Source: Candidatus Heimdallarchaeota archaeon (GTDB lineage: Archaea > Asgardarchaeota > Heimdallarchaeia > Heimdallarchaeales > Kariarchaeaceae). From it: a stretch of DNA of 15,466 nt. Within the stretch, counting starts at the first letter, position 1, and each line of letters starts with the position of its first letter. Positions 4,523 to 10,948 of this stretch are shown here, piece after piece. The DNA is taken from the NCBI GenBank assembly GCA_029882335.1, contig JAOUKW010000056.1, positions 1 to 15,466 on the forward strand, given 5' to 3'. The position numbers were made by a program, and so were the translations under genes. Below the pieces are notes generated by a model. It had not been told where the DNA came from. It saw nothing but the letters and a program-made list of their open reading frames with translations, and made no database searches.

Positions 4523-5308
4523 TTAAACTTCATGTTTTGTTTGAATAATAAATTCTTTTGTTGTAATGTAATCTTCAAATGATATTTGTAGTGCTCCGCT
4601 GAGTGGATTATCCATATCATGAATTATGATATATGATAGAAAGACTAATACAGAAACAGAGAAAAGAATTATAATATATAATTTGAAACTTTCAAATCCA
4701 TCAATTAGGTACCCAAACCAGAAGAAAAATGATGCAGTGATATAAAATACTCGAAGCATTCCTGGCATTTGGCTTTTACAATGTTTTATTCTTTGTGATC
4801 GTGCGGTTGCTAATTTTTGATATGCATGCATGATTGATTCAAATGCAATTGGATCTCGGGGATCATCAAATTTTATTTTATCAATAACTCTTATAATGGC
4901 AATTAATTCTTTTGATGGATATTTCACAGGTTTCTGATTTCTTAACAGGTCAAACTCTGAATTTAATGTGGAATCAATATAGTTAATTAATGCTGGCTTC
5001 ATTTTATTGGTGGTTTCCTCACTGTTTAGATAATCACAAAAATTCCAAAGTGATACCAAAGCGTTTGCTTCTTCTGCAAATACATTCTCTGTAGATGTAA
5101 AATGAGACCACACCGTAACTAAAATAAATGCTGTAATCAGGGAGTACAATGTTCCCATTACTCCAATCACATCTGATATTCTTATTTCTGATAATTCAAT
5201 ATACAAATTCTTAAAAAATTGATGATAAATCACTCCAAAAAGTGTTGATGTGAAAATATAAATAGTCGTTTTAACAATCAACTTTGATTTTTTATATGGA
5301 TGTTGCAT
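4523..5308 (-). CDS. Hypothetical membrane protein (261 aa), arranged as 2 TM - soluble domain - 2 TM.
   Basis: N-terminal hydrophobic segments (TTIYIFTSTLFGVIY, VIGVMGTLYSLITAFILVTVW), a central soluble region of about 120 aa, and C-terminal hydrophobic segments (VFYITASFFFWFGYLI, LYIIILFSVSVLVFLSYIII). Confidence 0.6.
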   Translation of the reverse strand: MQHPYKKSKLIVKTTIYIFTSTLFGVIYHQFFKNLYIELSEIRISDVIGVMGTLYSLITAFILVTVWSHFTSTENVFAEEANALVSLWNFCDYLNSEETTNKMKPALINYIDSTLNSEFDLLRNQKPVKYPSKELIAIIRVIDKIKFDDPRDPIAFESIMHAYQKLATARSQRIKHCKSQMPGMLRVFYITASFFFWFGYLIDGFESFKLYIIILFSVSVLVFLSYIIIHDMDNPLSGALQISFEDYITTKEFIIQTKHEV

Positions 5309-6657: not shown

Positions 6658-7284
6658 TCAATTCGTACCTCTTTCAATTTCGTTATCAGGTATATATTTT
6701 GTATAATATCCGATATTATTGAGAATTTTAATTAATTCTTCAAGTCTTATATTCAACTTTTGTTCATTCAATAGCTGTTGCTTATCCAAAGGACTAAGTT
6801 GCAATGTAAATATGATACCATTTAGCAGATCTTCTGCAGGTATTTTATTTAAATCCTCAACAATAATTCTGCTTCTTTTTGAAAATTCGTTCATTGAATG
6901 AAGTAATTTATCTGTTAGTGTGGTTTTATTATTTTCATTCTCCCAGTATTCTGGTCTAATATTAATAATTTTACCCTGTTTATATGGTGTTATTGTATCA
7001 TTAAGTTCTTCAATTTCTACCGTTTGGATACCATGTAAAACGATGTTTGATCTACCATCTGTAAGTGATTGATGGTGGATTATTTTTCCAATGGTTGCAA
7101 TGTGATTTGGCTTATTATTGGCCATCAATTGTGTTATACAAATTAATCTTTCATTTTCAGGTAATGCAAGCATATCTTTAATCATTATCTGATATCGGTT
7201 TTCAAAGATATGTAGTGGCAAAATGACTCTGGGAAAGAAAACCATATCAGATAGTGGAAAGAGGGGATATGATTTTCCTATCAC
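6658..7284 (-). CDS. Stand-alone Lon protease N-terminal (substrate-binding, PUA-like) domain protein; no ATPase or protease domain.
   Basis: N-terminus YPLFPLSDMVFFPRVILPLHIFENRYQIMIKDML matches the LON_N hallmark (LPLfPL..vlFPg..lpLhIFEpRY). It is 208 aa and ends 3 bp from the ACAD stop on the opposite strand. Confidence 0.8.
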   Translation of the reverse strand: MIGKSYPLFPLSDMVFFPRVILPLHIFENRYQIMIKDMLALPENERLICITQLMANNKPNHIATIGKIIHHQSLTDGRSNIVLHGIQTVEIEELNDTITPYKQGKIINIRPEYWENENNKTTLTDKLLHSMNEFSKRSRIIVEDLNKIPAEDLLNGIIFTLQLSPLDKQQLLNEQKLNIRLEELIKILNNIGYYTKYIPDNEIERGTN

Positions 7285-7444: not shown

Positions 7445-8416
7445 ATGGTACACATACCGTTTAATGAAGATATTTTAATTTGGGTTGCAGAACATCGATT
7501 TTACTTGCTAACCTTCATTATGTCATTTTTTACTCATATAGGTAGTATTGAAGGTTATATCCTATTGATCTGTGGTATTCACTGGTTGTATAATAAAAAC
7601 GTTGGTGTGAGAGCAGGTGTTGCACTTTTGATTTCTGCGATATTAAATCATACACTCAAGATTATTATTAAAAATCCAAGGCCATTTATAGAATCTGGAG
7701 AAACTGATAAGTACTGGGCCAAACCATTTCTAGAAGCAGATGAATCTGAACTGGGTTATTCAACACCTTCAGGACATGCAATGGGATCTTCTACTTTTTT
7801 TAGTTATATTTATTTAAAGAATAAATCAAGAAAATCACTCATAATATCATTCATTTTTATTTTTATGATCGGAATTTCAAGACCATATTTAGGTGTGCAC
7901 TACCTTGAGGATGTATTATTGGGTTGGATGATTGGCATACTAGTTACTTTACTTGTCTTTAAGGTAGAACCTGTAATTCCAACTATTTGGAATAAACAAA
8001 GTGAATCAGTAAAATATATAATACTTCTAGTACCTGCACTACTAACAACAATTATTTCAGGTGTAGTAACAAATTATTCTGAGGATGGAACTGCATATGT
8101 TACACTTAGTGGAATATTAAGCGGTGCATTATTTGGATATGTCTATGAATTAAAAGCAAATGACTTCGATGAGGATTACGATGAGGTTTATATTGGAATA
8201 CTGCGATATATTTTAGGAATAGTACTAGTATTTAGTTTTCAAATTGGTTTAGATGAAATATTTGCAATTATTTCTGATGATTATTCTTTATTAGGATATA
8301 TCTTACGGTTGATTCGATATTTTTTAATTGGTTTTTCAATAACATACCTTGCCCCATTTCTCTTTGTGAAGCTAAATTTAGCAAAAACACGGATAGAAGG
8401 CAATAAATCAGAATAG
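7445..8416 (+). CDS. PAP2-family membrane phosphatase (phosphatidic-acid / undecaprenyl-PP phosphatase-like) with an extra C-terminal multi-TM extension.
   Basis: All three PAP2 signature motifs are present: KIIIKNPRP (Kx6RP), PSGH (TPSGHAMGS) and SRPYLGVHYLED (SRx5Hx3D). About 150 additional residues with 3-4 hydrophobic helices follow the core. Confidence 0.88.
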   Translation: MVHIPFNEDILIWVAEHRFYLLTFIMSFFTHIGSIEGYILLICGIHWLYNKNVGVRAGVALLISAILNHTLKIIIKNPRPFIESGETDKYWAKPFLEADESELGYSTPSGHAMGSSTFFSYIYLKNKSRKSLIISFIFIFMIGISRPYLGVHYLEDVLLGWMIGILVTLLVFKVEPVIPTIWNKQSESVKYIILLVPALLTTIISGVVTNYSEDGTAYVTLSGILSGALFGYVYELKANDFDEDYDEVYIGILRYILGIVLVFSFQIGLDEIFAIISDDYSLLGYILRLIRYFLIGFSITYLAPFLFVKLNLAKTRIEGNKSE

Positions 8417-8426
8417 ATTATCAGTG

Positions 8427-9320
8427 TTAGTCATCTTCAAGGATGTCTATTGCCTTCTTATTTTTTAATTTACTTAGGGTTGGTTGTTCTGAATGACCTC
8501 GAGTAATGAGATACATTTGCTCTTTTTTTGCCCACACATATCCTTTTTCTCCTTTTGAGAAGTTGTCATGGGGAAATGCGCCTATAGCTAATTCAGTACT
8601 GATATATCCATCTCTTCTTTTAATATGAACCATGCCTGCTTTATCCTTTGTAACTGAATGTTGAACAGTAGCAATATCACCTCTAGAAACATGTTTAATT
8701 GGTACAATTACTGTTTTAGCATAATTTGCGATGATGTAGGCAAACAATTTAGAGATAAAATAACCACTCATAATTGCTAGAAACAGGTTCCAATCTTGCA
8801 AATTATCAATTAATGACCATCCAACTTGACCAAATATTAATGTAAATACTGCAATATTTCCCATCATATAGTTTGATTTCTCTACATGGGCATCATGTAC
8901 AATACCAGCATCAATTTGATCTGGTAGATGATCGAAATGACCTTGCAAGACGGAATGTTCTGTAGAGGTTTCAAGGAGGGAATCACTATTAAGATCGCCA
9001 TCAAAGTCATGACCATCCATATCAAAGTCGGTGTCGGCATCAAAGTCATGACCATCCATATCAAAGTCGGTATCTGCATCAAAGTCATGACCATCCATAT
9101 CAAAGTTGGTATCGGCATCAAAGTCATGACCATCCATATCAAAGTCGGTATCGGCATCAAAGTCATGACCATCCATATTGTGTGAGTCTACATCAGAATC
9201 TTCATCTCCAAGTCCACCTATGATGGTAAATACTAGAAATATCAATCCAAAAAAGAATGAAGTGATGAAGATAATCAACCATACTTCTAGTGGTAATAAG
9301 TTCACAATTAATTTTGTCAT
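8427..9320 (-). CDS. NfeD-like membrane protein (short form, C-terminal OB-fold) with an inserted Asp/His-rich tandem-repeat region.
   Basis: N-terminal TM (LIIFITSFFFGLIFLVFTII), then roughly 5 copies of MDGHDFDADTDFD, then further TM segments. The C-terminal beta-rich segment (GMVHIKRRDGYISTELAIGA...GEKGYVWAKKEQMYLI) is typical of NfeD OB domains. GGAGG SD lies 7 nt upstream. The gene starts 23 bp after the flotillin stop, so this is an operon. Confidence 0.85.
   Translation of the reverse strand: MTKLIVNLLPLEVWLIIFITSFFFGLIFLVFTIIGGLGDEDSDVDSHNMDGHDFDADTDFDMDGHDFDADTNFDMDGHDFDADTDFDMDGHDFDADTDFDMDGHDFDGDLNSDSLLETSTEHSVLQGHFDHLPDQIDAGIVHDAHVEKSNYMMGNIAVFTLIFGQVGWSLIDNLQDWNLFLAIMSGYFISKLFAYIIANYAKTVIVPIKHVSRGDIATVQHSVTKDKAGMVHIKRRDGYISTELAIGAFPHDNFSKGEKGYVWAKKEQMYLITRGHSEQPTLSKLKNKKAIDILEDD
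8999..9180. repeat. Direct tandem repeat, 39-bp unit x ~4.7 copies, in frame inside the NfeD-like gene.
   Basis: Unit catcaaagtcatgaccatccatatcaaagtcggtRtcgg at 8999-9037, 9038-9076, 9077-9115, 9116-9154, plus a partial copy from 9155. The copies are near-identical (1-2 mismatches). On the minus strand the unit encodes MDGHDFDADTDFD. Confidence 0.9.
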
Positions 9321-9327
9321 ATAATTT

Positions 9328-9332
9328 CCTCC
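9328..9332 (-). promoter_or_regulatory. Shine-Dalgarno (GGAGG) for the NfeD-like gene.
   Basis: Minus-strand AAGGAGGAAATTAT-ATG, with a 7-nt spacer. Confidence 0.5.
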
Positions 9333-9343
9333 TTGAATTTACT

Positions 9344-10948
9344 TTAAACAATGAGCTGTCTTAGTTCAGAGAGTTGAATGTCTGGTTTTCCATCTCCATC
9401 AAGATCCAACGCATCAACTATTCCATCACCATCATTGTCAATGAAGGTCACTTGTTCTGGAAAGGGGAAATCTATTGTTCCATTTCCATTCAAATCTACA
9501 CCATTTACATTTCCATCACCATTTAAATCAACAAATGATATTCCTGGTGGTAGTTTGGGGAGCTCTAATTTTAATTTTTCAGGATTCCCATTCTTAGGTG
9601 ATTGTCCGCGAATTGATCTCATTAAACCTTCGAGATCCAATCCAAATGATTTAGCAAGTGCCATTACTTGTAGTAAATTCTTAGGAATAATTCCTAAAGG
9701 CGAATTTTCACCATCTGAAGAATTATTACCACCCATATTTAACCAGTTAATGTCACCTACTTTCATTGAACTTGCAATATTTGGTAATTGATTTACAAGT
9801 TCTTGCAATATCATAGCTTCATTCACCATACCTTGTGCTTTTACTTTTTCTCTCAGACCTTCTGCTTCAGCAAGTAAGATTGCCTTTTTACCCTCTGCTT
9901 CTGCCAAAAGTGATTGTTTCTTTGCTTCGGCTAGCTTGATCTCAGCTTGGGCATCCATATCTGCTGCAAGTAATTTTGCTTGTGCCTCAATTTTGATTGC
10001 CTCCGCTGTAGCTTCTGCCATTAGTTTTTTCTGCTGTGCCTCTACTTGGATATTTTCGAGTATGTGTTTTCTCTTTTTAGCTTCTGCCTGTAATTCAATC
10101 TCCATTAACTTTGTTTCAGCTTCTACCTGAAGTTTTTCCTTTTCAAGAGTGGCAATTTTTACTTCTCGGGTTTTCTGGAGTTCTTGTACAGTTCTAAGTC
10201 TTTGTTCTTCTTGATGATTCATTTTCTCTGTTTCTTGAACAACAACTTTATCTCTTTCTAGTTCTGAGATTTGTACTTCTTGTGATGAAAGAGCTCTTGC
10301 TTTTGCAATTTCTTTTTCTGTTTCTATCTTCTTGTTCTCTGCATTTAGCCTGGCTTCTTGTTTGTATTTTTGTTGAAGGTCCTCAAAAAGGTCTACATCT
10401 AATACATCTACATGTCTAATTTCTGCAGTATTTATTTTAATACCCATTGGACCTACCACTGTAACTAATTCAGCAACTAATGCCTCTATTATGAGTGATC
10501 TCTCTCTGAGAACTTGATCCAATGATAATCTTGCTACGGTTGTTCTAACTATACTTTCCACCAATCTTGATATTGTCTCATTAATGTGTGTCATTACACC
10601 TGATCCTTTATTACCAGATAAACTCTGATAGGCAATCTCTGGGTTCTCAATTCTCCATAAAACAAATCCAATAACTCTAACATCTTGGTTTTCTGCAGTG
10701 ATAACCTCACCAGCGTTAACTTCTAATTGTTGTACTGTAGTAGTTAAAACAATTAATTGGTCGATTAATGGAAGGACAAAGTATCCTCCACCATATCCAC
10801 TGTTCTTCAGCACACCATTTCTAAATCGAAGCACAAAATCCTGATTTGTGAATTTTCTGTATCGACTTTTTATAATAGCTATGGTTGCAGTCATAATAAT
10901 GAATGCACTAAGTGCAATCGTTAATCCGGTTTGAAATTCCTTTACCAT
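9344..10948 (-). CDS. Flotillin-type SPFH/band-7 membrane scaffold protein with a C-terminal calcium-binding (DxDxDG) repeat tail.
   Basis: N-terminal TM (LTIALSAFIIMTATIAII), an SPFH domain (about aa 50-230) and a long Glu/Ala/Lys-rich coiled coil with flotillin-style EA repeats (LLAEAEGKKAILLAEAEGLREKV). The C-terminus reads DLNGDGNVNGVDLNGNGTIDF...DNDGDGIVDALDLDGDGKPD, i.e. four DxDxDG loops. AGGTGA lies upstream of the ATG. Confidence 0.9.
   Translation of the reverse strand: MVKEFQTGLTIALSAFIIMTATIAIIKSRYRKFTNQDFVLRFRNGVLKNSGYGGGYFVLPLIDQLIVLTTTVQQLEVNAGEVITAENQDVRVIGFVLWRIENPEIAYQSLSGNKGSGVMTHINETISRLVESIVRTTVARLSLDQVLRERSLIIEALVAELVTVVGPMGIKINTAEIRHVDVLDVDLFEDLQQKYKQEARLNAENKKIETEKEIAKARALSSQEVQISELERDKVVVQETEKMNHQEEQRLRTVQELQKTREVKIATLEKEKLQVEAETKLMEIELQAEAKKRKHILENIQVEAQQKKLMAEATAEAIKIEAQAKLLAADMDAQAEIKLAEAKKQSLLAEAEGKKAILLAEAEGLREKVKAQGMVNEAMILQELVNQLPNIASSMKVGDINWLNMGGNNSSDGENSPLGIIPKNLLQVMALAKSFGLDLEGLMRSIRGQSPKNGNPEKLKLELPKLPPGISFVDLNGDGNVNGVDLNGNGTIDFPFPEQVTFIDNDGDGIVDALDLDGDGKPDIQLSELRQLIV

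Follow-up and report, generated by a model that had tools for sequence, protein, structure and literature searches.

A flotillin of Heimdallarchaeota ends in a predicted module of four calcium-type loops

The DNA analysed here, referred to as the window, is a stretch of 15,466 nucleotides from a Candidatus Heimdallarchaeota archaeon (GCA_029882335.1, the whole of contig JAOUKW010000056.1), and its minus strand carries a flotillin-like SPFH gene encoding 534 amino acids. Translation of this open reading frame (ORF) showed that the protein ends in ...GISFVDLNGDGNVNGVDLNGNGTIDFPFPEQVTFIDNDGDGIVDALDLDGDGKPDIQLSELRQLIV, a segment of 66 residues in which four calcium-type loops follow the ordinary flotillin C-terminus. 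As judged from sequence comparison, it represents a novel form of flotillin, set apart by this accessory repeat and encountered in Asgard archaea of the Heimdall group. The balance of evidence tilts modestly toward a reading in which the tails would form a ring of 4n calcium-type sites, n being the number of subunits, attached through flexible linkers to the tip of a flotillin basket, on its cytoplasmic side and away from the membrane, and acting as a cation-dependent switch or stabiliser. The tail bears on two questions, namely the role of the distal end of SPFH cages and the age of Ca2+ regulation before eukaryogenesis.

The motif D-x-[DN]-x-[DN]-G was found to start at residues 474, 485, 504 and 515 (spacing 11/19/11), and there was no further match in the protein. 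The original prediction of four consecutive calcium-type loops at the end of the flotillin was thus borne out, and the tail sequence and coordinates given with it were also correct: positions 9344-9545 comprise the stop codon and residues 468/469-534. When the 66 residues were shuffled with the composition kept (n=200,000), four matches were reached in 0 shuffles and three matches in 3; shuffling of the whole protein (n=20,000) gave at most 2 matches. The longer pattern D-x-[DN]-x-[DN]-G-x-x-[DSTN] was satisfied by all four tail loops, and the fuller EF-loop pattern, with I/L/V at position 8, by three of the four, loop 4 having Pro. A later acidic residue was present in each loop, as D at position 12 in loops 1 and 3 and as E at position 14 in loops 2 and 4, so that position 12 reads D, F, D, L across the four. 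The tail has a net charge of -12 and contains no Cys. The parts of the protein, whose coordinates were verified by back-translation, are as follows.

9344-10948, minus strand: flotillin-like SPFH gene, 534 amino acids plus stop (ORF, Pfam, identity to NCBI protein)
10868-10927, minus strand: the one transmembrane helix, an N-terminal anchor at residues 8-27 with the conserved basic motif KSRYRKFTN behind it (hydropathy, flanking charge)
10313-10834, minus strand: SPFH / Band 7 domain, residues 39-212 (Pfam Band_7; stomatin, HflC and QmcA matches)
9761-10312, minus strand: long Ala/Glu/Lys-rich helical 'wall' and start of the cap helix, residues 213-396 (alignment with Flotillin-1/-2 to residue 396)
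9605-9760, minus strand: canonical flotillin C-terminal cap, residues 397-448, with an INWLNMGG strand and then the helix IPKNLLQVMALAKSFGLDLEGLMRSIRG (motif common to bacterial homologues)
9536-9604, minus strand: Pro/Lys-rich linker, residues 449-471, QSPKNGNPEKLKLELPKLPPGIS, 23 amino acids (length and sequence vary among orthologues)
9455-9535, minus strand: double-loop unit 1, residues 472-498, FVDLNGDGNVNGVDLNGNGTIDFPFPE (unit hidden Markov model (HMM), E about 1e-9 to 1e-11)
9365-9445, minus strand: double-loop unit 2, residues 502-528, FIDNDGDGIVDALDLDGDGKPDIQLSE (unit HMM match)
9347-9373, minus strand: short C-terminal amphipathic helix, residues 526-534, LSELRQLIV (helix at residues 58-62 of the AlphaFold2 (AF2) model)

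Comparison of 43 orthologues revealed that the tail is built not of four independent loops but of tandem double-loop units of ~27-30 amino acids, each arranged as strand-loop-strand-loop-strand, with the consensus h-D-L-[DN]-G-D-G-K-I-D-G-F-D-L-[DN]-G-D-G-E-I-D-F-x-L-P-E (h, hydrophobic). The two 12-residue loops of a unit overlap by one Asp, position 12 of the first being position 1 of the second. In unit 1, loop 1 spans D474-D485 and loop 2 D485-D493, with D485 common to both and E498 as position 14; in unit 2, loop 3 spans D504-D515 and loop 4 D515-D523, with D515 common to both and E528 as position 14. The second loop was the best-conserved part of the unit. Over 46 units from 24 orthologues it kept D1 in 43/45, D/N3 in 36/45, D5 in 39/45, G6 in 40/45 and D9 in 42/44; position 14 was acidic in 30/40, and hydrophobic positions were kept too. 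The loop motif is therefore not a chance feature of one sequence. In published Ca2+-binding Dx[DN]xDG loops, the side chains at positions 1, 3 and 5, the backbone at position 7 and a later acidic residue serve as ligands (PMC3123361); the conservation pattern of the tail loops matches this definition, which supports the reading of the tail as a set of cation sites. An AF2 model of the tail, based on an 11-sequence alignment, had a predicted local distance difference test score (pLDDT) of 84, with short strands flanking every loop and one short terminal helix, and the ending h-x-L-x-[DE]-h-L was kept in tail-bearing orthologues. Tandem Repeats Finder detected no DNA-level tandem repeat in the flotillin tail, implying that the two units are old duplicates that have been maintained; a recent tandem duplication of the tail was ruled out, since the only repeat reported lies in the neighbouring partner gene.

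The core of the protein was that of a flotillin. The product was 100% identical to the NCBI entry 'SPFH domain-containing protein [Candidatus Heimdallarchaeota archaeon]' (P0001; homologous proteins and compared loci are cited below by P and L numbers). Pfam Band_7 matched residues 39-212 (E=1.1e-22, 81.3 bits against a cut-off of 23.6), and Pfam Flot gave a sub-threshold match over residues 328-410 (21.5 bits against 27, E=2.6e-4). In a phmmer search of the PDB, human Flotillin-1 aligned with residues 53-396 (E=2e-5) and Flotillin-2 with residues 68-395, and chains of stomatin, HflC and QmcA matched the SPFH part; by BLASTP, the helical region matched E. coli YqiK at E=4e-10. The FloT equivalog level was not reached (NCBIfam FlotScfldFlot, 42 bits against a cut-off of 700). 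By these comparisons the protein belongs to a distant archaeal clade separate from bacterial FloT. Its canonical C-terminus reads FGLDLEGL...IRG, and the repeat module comes after it. A C-terminal LPxIA..., a strand and a helix ending in the (F)GLDL..L motif are common to the Heimdall proteins and the bacterial homologues P0048, P0052 and P0054; the distance from this motif to the C-terminus was 7-38 amino acids (median 31) in bacterial homologues, compared with 36-144 in the Heimdall family.

Double-loop units, one to three per protein, were found in 24 of the 43 flotillin orthologues, which are 40-63% identical and all have the source name Heimdallarchaeota or Kariarchaeaceae. Among 77 more distant flotillin homologues (P0044-P0120), none showed a DxDxDG motif or a unit match, in agreement with the earlier statement that canonical bacterial flotillins lack such a tail. 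The survey of orthologues that had been proposed as a check gave a divided answer: the conservation in the 24 is position-specific, but the tail is absent from the other 19. Species representatives in GTDB gave a similar distribution, with units at 3 of 10 Heimdall/Kariarchaeota loci and at none of 13 bacterial/Bathyarchaeia flotillin loci. In a rough neighbour-joining tree of the flotillin core, the tail-less clade P0038-P0041 was basal. No correlation was found between the copy number of the tail units and the presence or type of the partner gene described below. Two loci deserve mention. At L013:471-2215 (Candidatus Kariarchaeota FT_008, JAEOUB010000001.1) core and tail are split between two reading frames, ORF 471-1895 encoding the flotillin core and ORF 1865-2215 a tail of ~3 units; this frameshift is an assembly error or marks a pseudogene. 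At L001:7832-13680, the locus of the closest orthologue P0003, two ~1000-amino-acid SBBP beta-propeller-repeat proteins stand downstream of the flotillin in place of the partner gene; one of them had a faint TSP3_bac match, and neither matched the unit HMM.

To assign the module to a family, the tail was compared with Pfam, NCBIfam and the PDB (sequence profile search), and the fold of its AF2 model was compared with known folds. All Pfam and NCBIfam matches were sub-threshold and each covered a single loop (EF-hand_5, FG-GAP_3, Dockerin_1, BamM and XopAW), and no fold match was found for the model. Matches of this kind rule out membership of these families, though not resemblance to them. The EF-hand was rejected (EF-hand_5, 20.8 bits against 25.9; EF-hand_1, 10.1 bits), strands being predicted and Glu12 lacking. 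A type I dockerin was likewise rejected: Dockerin_1 scored 14.9 bits with the whole protein and 18.7 with the tail against a cut-off of 22.9, over positions 35-49 of the 57-position profile only; the two loop-helix F-hand segments of the dockerin fold were not found, and there was no cohesin domain among the neighbouring genes examined. FG-GAP_3 reached 20.6 bits (cut-off 26.9) and FG-GAP 15 (22.1), and the module of only 57-66 amino acids did not suit a calcium-blade propeller; multi-blade FG-GAP/VCBS proteins, in the search of representatives described below, matched the tail profile one loop at a time. For thrombospondin type 3 repeats, Pfam TSP_3 and TSP3_bac gave no match at E<=1 and the tail is free of Cys; Pfam RTX did not match the tail. 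The PDB profile search returned EF-hand Ca2+ loops only, from CaBP1 (E=4e-4), hippocalcin, polcalcin and calmodulin, with 10-17 residues aligned; the CaBP1 match covers 'FDTNGDGEI' and 'VDLNGDGRVDF'. The dockerin, EF-hand and FG-GAP/thrombospondin labels offered by the original prediction were therefore not upheld, all Pfam scores being sub-threshold, strands rather than helices being predicted and no fold matching. Dx[DN]xDG loops are known in at least 16 structural contexts, including strand-loop-strand (PMC3123361). On present evidence the double-loop tail belongs to no catalogued family and is best described as a Dx[DN]xDG calcium-type loop in a strand-loop-strand context.

An exhaustive search of 1.84 billion representatives with the tail profile gave 872 proteins at E<=1e-3. 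Among the best 150 of these 872, the only flotillins were the representative of the Heimdall family and two fragments of it. A word-indexed search of 5.8 billion proteins with the same profile returned 3 short bacterial proteins and missed the flotillin family itself, a limitation of the index. The best full-unit matches were many small bacterial proteins with a signal peptide, a lipobox and tandem h-h-D-x-D-G-D-G-x-P-D-G-h-D-h-D-C-D-G-x-x-D units; a few large secreted proteins also matched the full unit. The small proteins (P0133, P0136, P0140, P0145, P0148, P0152, P0154, P0168, P0237 and others) make up a widespread lipoprotein-like family; tandem DxDGDGxPDGxDxDCDGxxD double-loop units, with cysteines in pairs, account for nearly the whole of these proteins. 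Neither Pfam nor NCBIfam has a family for them, and they showed only weak matches to Cu-binding_MopE and to the thrombospondin-3-like MtsD/CglD. Against throspo3_MtsD these bacterial relatives scored 27.7 bits (cut-off 800), and the archaeal tail showed no such match. Judged by these profiles, the double-loop unit and its bacterial lipoprotein relatives constitute a repeat family that is currently absent from Pfam and NCBIfam.

Immediately downstream of the flotillin gene lies a second gene of the putative operon, whose features are as follows.

8427-9320, minus strand: operon partner, 297 amino acids, with a first transmembrane helix, a hypervariable Asp/His-rich loop (DGHDFDADTDFDM about five times), second and third transmembrane helices and a conserved domain of ~80 amino acids, predicted to be of beta type
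9328-9334, minus strand: Shine-Dalgarno-like AAGGAGG in the 23-nucleotide gap between flotillin stop and partner start (read from the sequence)
8994-9178, minus strand: 39-bp tandem repeat, 4.7 copies, 95% matches, encoding the DGHDFDADTDFDM repeat of the partner (Tandem Repeats Finder)

The AAGGAGG in the short gap implies that flotillin and partner are co-transcribed. The Asp/His-rich loop of the partner, ~110 amino acids long, was hypervariable among homologues, while the transmembrane and C-terminal parts were conserved. Seven homologues of the partner were found; all named sources were Heimdall, and a Pfam domain was present in none of them. A 99%-identical allele, P0124, shows point differences inside the 39-bp repeat and bears the NCBI name 'MSCRAMM family adhesin SdrC, partial'. 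This name looks like a misannotation caused by Asp-rich composition, the NCBIfam Sdr/Clf models giving only ~10 bits; matches of the partner to purine nucleoside phosphorylase and MSCRAMM were rejected as artefacts of the same composition. The original prediction had called the partner NfeD. For nine members of the partner family, Pfam gave no match at E<=10, NfeD and DUF1449 included, neither phmmer nor a profile search against the PDB returned an NfeD protein, and hhalign against YqiJ of E. coli MG1655 gave a probability of 0.4%; the structure model was of low confidence (pLDDT 51). The partner may thus be termed NfeD-like by predicted fold, architecture and operon position only, and the firm label had to be given up. 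NfeD genes likewise neighbour SPFH genes (PMC13086221).

The partner gene adjoins a flotillin gene, in either order, in the window and at L006 (twice), L009, L010, L015, L017, L018 and L020. At L016 it is nearby in divergent orientation and at L021 it is upstream across a gap of ~1.4 kb, so that these two loci give no evidence of operon membership. It was not adjacent to the genes of the tail-bearing flotillins P0003, P0007 and P0013. The tail-less flotillin P0029 has a partner with a DGHD.HFD repeat, showing that the Asp/His loop is not specific to tail-bearing flotillins. The flotillin-type double-loop unit itself was also found in partners: the loop of the partner encoded at L006:3481-4434 carries the units AIDLDGDGIADGLDLDGDGVIDV and GIDLDGDGVIDGYDLDGDGIID, and that of P0129 carries AIDLDGDGMPDGIDLDGDGIIDV. 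Scanning of the window and every retrieved Heimdall locus with the unit HMM, in all six frames, gave matches in flotillin tails and partner loops only, which suggests that the unit is a mobile accessory of this two-protein system. The proposed link between the tail and the co-transcribed Asp/His repeat was accordingly strengthened in one respect, as the partner loops of two loci carry the identical type of unit, and weakened in another, as the Asp/His loop also occurs beside tail-less flotillins.

Some partner loci were unusual. L006:1729-7640 (GCA_026702845.1, JADCLS010000007.1) contains tandem flotillin-partner pairs, P0014 with a 317-amino-acid partner and P0019 with a 259-amino-acid partner; the two partners differ strongly in the loop, one having double-loop units and the other a DGHDGDHGDGHD repeat. 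In Heimdallarchaeota LC_2 (MDVR01000146.1) the partner homologue P0128/HeimC2_40820 (L008:4001-4855) has no adjacent flotillin, and 13 bp downstream of its gene, at L008:4868-5086, is a gene for a 72-amino-acid heavy-metal-associated (HMA) domain. This neighbour hints that the protein with the Asp/His-rich loop may handle transition metals, instead of or besides Ca2+.

The side of the membrane was predicted from charge. Over the 33 orthologues whose N-terminus is intact, the short segment before the transmembrane helix of the flotillin had a median charge of 0 and the 15 residues after it one of +4 (K-S-R-Y-R-K-F-T-N-R-E-F), which by the positive-inside rule puts the body of the protein in the cytoplasm. 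A second transmembrane segment that would flip the tail outside was rejected, the only other hydrophobic window (about residues 151-170) lying inside the SPFH domain. The flotillin body and tail would thus be cytoplasmic, consistent with the cytoplasmic orientation of FloT and YqiK. In the partner, a Lys/Arg-rich segment after the third transmembrane helix and a Lys-rich C-terminus predict a cytoplasmic beta domain; since two helices separate this domain from the acidic loop, the loop is predicted to be on the same, cytoplasmic side. The tail unit and the partner-loop unit presumably lie in the same compartment.

From these observations the following mechanism may be outlined. The tail would be a lineage-specific accessory module, composed of two units with four loops and set behind a 23-amino-acid flexible linker that follows the canonical C-terminus. 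The flotillin would be held by one N-terminal helix, with the remainder in the cytoplasm, and by analogy with the solved flotillin, HflK/C and QmcA cages it would form a closed basket, with the C-termini making up the narrow distal end. In the human flotillin cages of known structure, the narrow end lying away from the membrane consists of the C-terminal region and is able to touch a second membrane; the final residues of the chain show little order and either extend into the cytoplasm (Flotillin-1) or are buried (Flotillin-2) (PMC11260169; PMC13000311). If the Heimdall protein forms such a cage, as we infer from these relatives and from the baskets seen in Asgard cells by cryo-electron tomography, its tails would ring the distal tip, each subunit putting four cation sites and a 66-residue segment of net charge -12 at or around it, and n subunits would offer 4n sites. 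Without cation the acidic tails would be expanded and mutually repelling; binding of Ca2+, or possibly Mg2+, would fold and neutralise them into compact beta modules, and the folded tails could change the action or contacts of the tip, be it tip closure, contact with the acidic loop of the partner or contact with another surface. Both the binding of metal and the switch behaviour are inferred from the loops. That Ca2+ may be a signal in this cytoplasm is made plausible by the gelsolins of Heimdall and Loki archaea, which are strictly Ca2+-controlled (PMC9433394). The suggestion that the calcium-loop repeat makes the scaffold cation-responsive is a reasonable one, strengthened by the unit common to flotillin and partner.

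Several points weigh against this proposal. Position 12 of the loops is Asp or hydrophobic and the bidentate Glu is missing, so the affinity may be too low for sub-micromolar cytosolic Ca2+. A cytoplasmic module of this kind would be unusual, because surveys place most DxDxDG contexts outside the cell, with only EF-hands and calcium blades common inside (PMC3123361), and because the closest relatives of the unit are secreted bacterial lipoproteins, in which Ca2+ is structural. The 19 orthologues without the module (about 44%) have short, unrelated, charged low-complexity tails instead, and forms with and without it interleave in the main clade of the tree, which indicates repeated loss or gain; the module would thus be dispensable for the core function of the flotillin. 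The first loop was degenerate in many orthologues (D5 in 28/45, D9 in 19/46; e.g. LDKKGRIKGFD), so that four intact sites per chain are peculiar to the 534-residue protein and the orthologues nearest to it. Ions are not part of AF2 models, and it is from distant homologues that the architecture of the cage and the placing of the tail, within the basket or outside it, have been extrapolated.

Four other explanations were considered. The loops might always hold Mg2+ or Ca2+ and merely stabilise a beta module that plugs or decorates the narrow end, without any switching. Most known non-EF-hand DxDxDG loops are structural in role (PMC3123361), and the lack of a bidentate Glu12, the compact ordered module predicted by AF2 and a unit copy number that varies between 1 and 3, giving no hint of a fixed stoichiometry, all fit such an ornament; a plug would, however, be expected to persist more consistently than in 24 of 43 orthologues, and the occurrence of the unit in the flexible hypervariable loop of the partner is better suited to a functional element for binding cations or ligands. 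We regard this explanation as improbable, while conceding it an appreciable chance. It is a good deal less likely that the tail works in the manner of a dockerin, folding on Ca2+ and recruiting a specific protein, the acidic loop of the partner or another, to the tip of the basket; in its favour are the weak Dockerin_1 loop matches and the finding that, among the ORFs of the sampled Heimdall loci, the two operon products alone carry the unit.

An outward-facing protein, with an extracellular basket whose repeats are ordinary extracellular structural Ca2+ sites as in the bacterial lipoproteins, appears very doubtful. The nearest unit relatives do carry signal peptides, lipoboxes and Cys-containing units with weak similarity to the thrombospondin-3-like MtsD/CglD, and HflK/C cages do face the periplasm, but positive charge stands after and not before the helix in nearly every orthologue, an arrangement shared with FloT and YqiK, which are cytoplasmic, the archaeal units are without Cys, and the partner, through its Lys/Arg-rich C-terminal domain and C-terminal tail, also predicts a cytoplasmic location for this side. 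Least likely of all is a neutral acidic low-complexity extension, in which slippage and drift produced the D/N/G repeats and DxDxDG is a by-product of composition: tails are variable and often absent, tail-less orthologues end in unrelated charged low-complexity sequence, the partner loop is clearly shaped by recent repeat expansion and Asp/Gly interconversion makes a convergent origin of the motif easy (PMC3123361), yet no composition-preserving shuffle out of 200,000 reached four loops, ligand, Gly and hydrophobic positions are kept in tails with an overall identity of 30-50%, the lack of a DNA-level tandem repeat marks the units as old and maintained, and the AF2 tail model is confident.

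The preferred reading, a ring of cation sites at the basket tip, can be carried further. Heimdall flotillin baskets might be Ca2+-gated devices in which a local rise of cytosolic Ca2+, for instance through a leak or a gated channel in the covered membrane patch, would load the 4n acidic tip loops, and Ca2+ would then link the distal tip either to the partner or to a second membrane or vesicle by way of its anionic lipids. This extension is speculative and we think it unlikely, but it is compatible with the contact of the eukaryotic cage's narrow end with a second membrane, with the inner-face SPFH-like baskets and internal vesicles seen in Asgard cells by cryo-electron tomography and with the Ca2+-controlled gelsolins of Heimdall archaea. 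If true, it would describe an archaeal forerunner of Ca2+-regulated membrane contact, repair and trafficking, with annexin-, C2- or ALG-2-like logic, on a flotillin scaffold.

Three neighbouring genes of the window were also recorded.

4523-5308, minus strand: protein with a bestrophin-like domain (Pfam Bestrophin-like, E=3e-27), some 4 kb away from the flotillin operon
6658-7284, minus strand: stand-alone Lon substrate-binding protein (LON_substr_bdg), adjoining the PAP2 gene
7445-8416, plus strand: PAP2-family lipid phosphatase with a long extra C-terminal membrane region, convergent with the 3' end of the operon across a 10-nucleotide gap

Eukaryotic bestrophins are Ca2+-activated anion channels, and membrane proteases are frequent partners of SPFH cages.

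Cages of the SPFH/flotillin type are present in every domain of life. The protein described here is a natural flotillin variant, from the archaeal group closest to eukaryotes, whose distal end bears conserved calcium-type loops that its partner can match. Should the loops bind Ca2+ in the cytoplasm, the protein would, to our knowledge, be the first flotillin to respond to a cation. The argument that Ca2+ signalling predates eukaryogenesis, up to now mainly gelsolin-based, would then gain a membrane scaffold, and there would be a simple handle (with or without Ca2+, loop mutants) on the function of the cage tip.

Compared with known systems, the Heimdall flotillin shares with the prokaryotic flotillins (B. 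subtilis FloT/YuaG, E. coli YqiK) and with Flotillin-1/2 the N-terminal anchor, the SPFH domain, a predicted long Ala/Glu-rich helical wall, the C-terminal LPxIA-strand-helix cap motif and the predicted cytoplasmic location, and like the prokaryotic ones its gene is often in an operon with a small membrane protein. It is only 24-29% identical to bacterial flotillins, and it has an 86-residue extension of linker and four Dx[DN]xDG loops, present in 0 of 77 other flotillin homologues. Its partner differs from NfeD proteins (YuaF, YqiJ, YbbJ and the C-domain of PH1510) in having no Pfam NfeD match and an extra 110-residue hypervariable Asp/His-rich loop. The first 9-10 residues of the tail loops fit the EF-loop consensus, and the best PDB matches were CaBP1, hippocalcin and calmodulin, but the entering and exiting helices of an EF-hand and Glu at position 12 are lacking. 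With type I dockerins the tail has in common a length of ~65 amino acids, duplicated loops of the Ca2+ type, Asp at loop position 12 and a C-terminal place on a carrier; it differs in having four loops instead of two, predicted strands instead of helices and no fold match. The repeats of thrombospondin type 3 kind (TSP/COMP; CglD/MtsD) and the bacterial lipoproteins resemble it in their contiguous Asp-rich loops with ~11-residue spacing, often followed by P-x-G, whereas the archaeal units are predicted to be cytoplasmic and have no cysteines, disulfides or signal peptide. In loop design the tail resembles the non-EF-hand Dx[DN]xDG calcium loops, the topic of Rigden et al. 2011 (PMC3123361) and reportedly also of Rigden & Galperin 2004: both have Asp/Asn in positions 1, 3 and 5, Gly in position 6, a hydrophobic side chain in position 8, Asp in position 9 and an acidic residue further on, and both stand in a strand-loop-strand setting. 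The archaeal loops are set apart by forming overlapping pairs with one common Asp, in tandem, on a scaffold predicted to be cytoplasmic.

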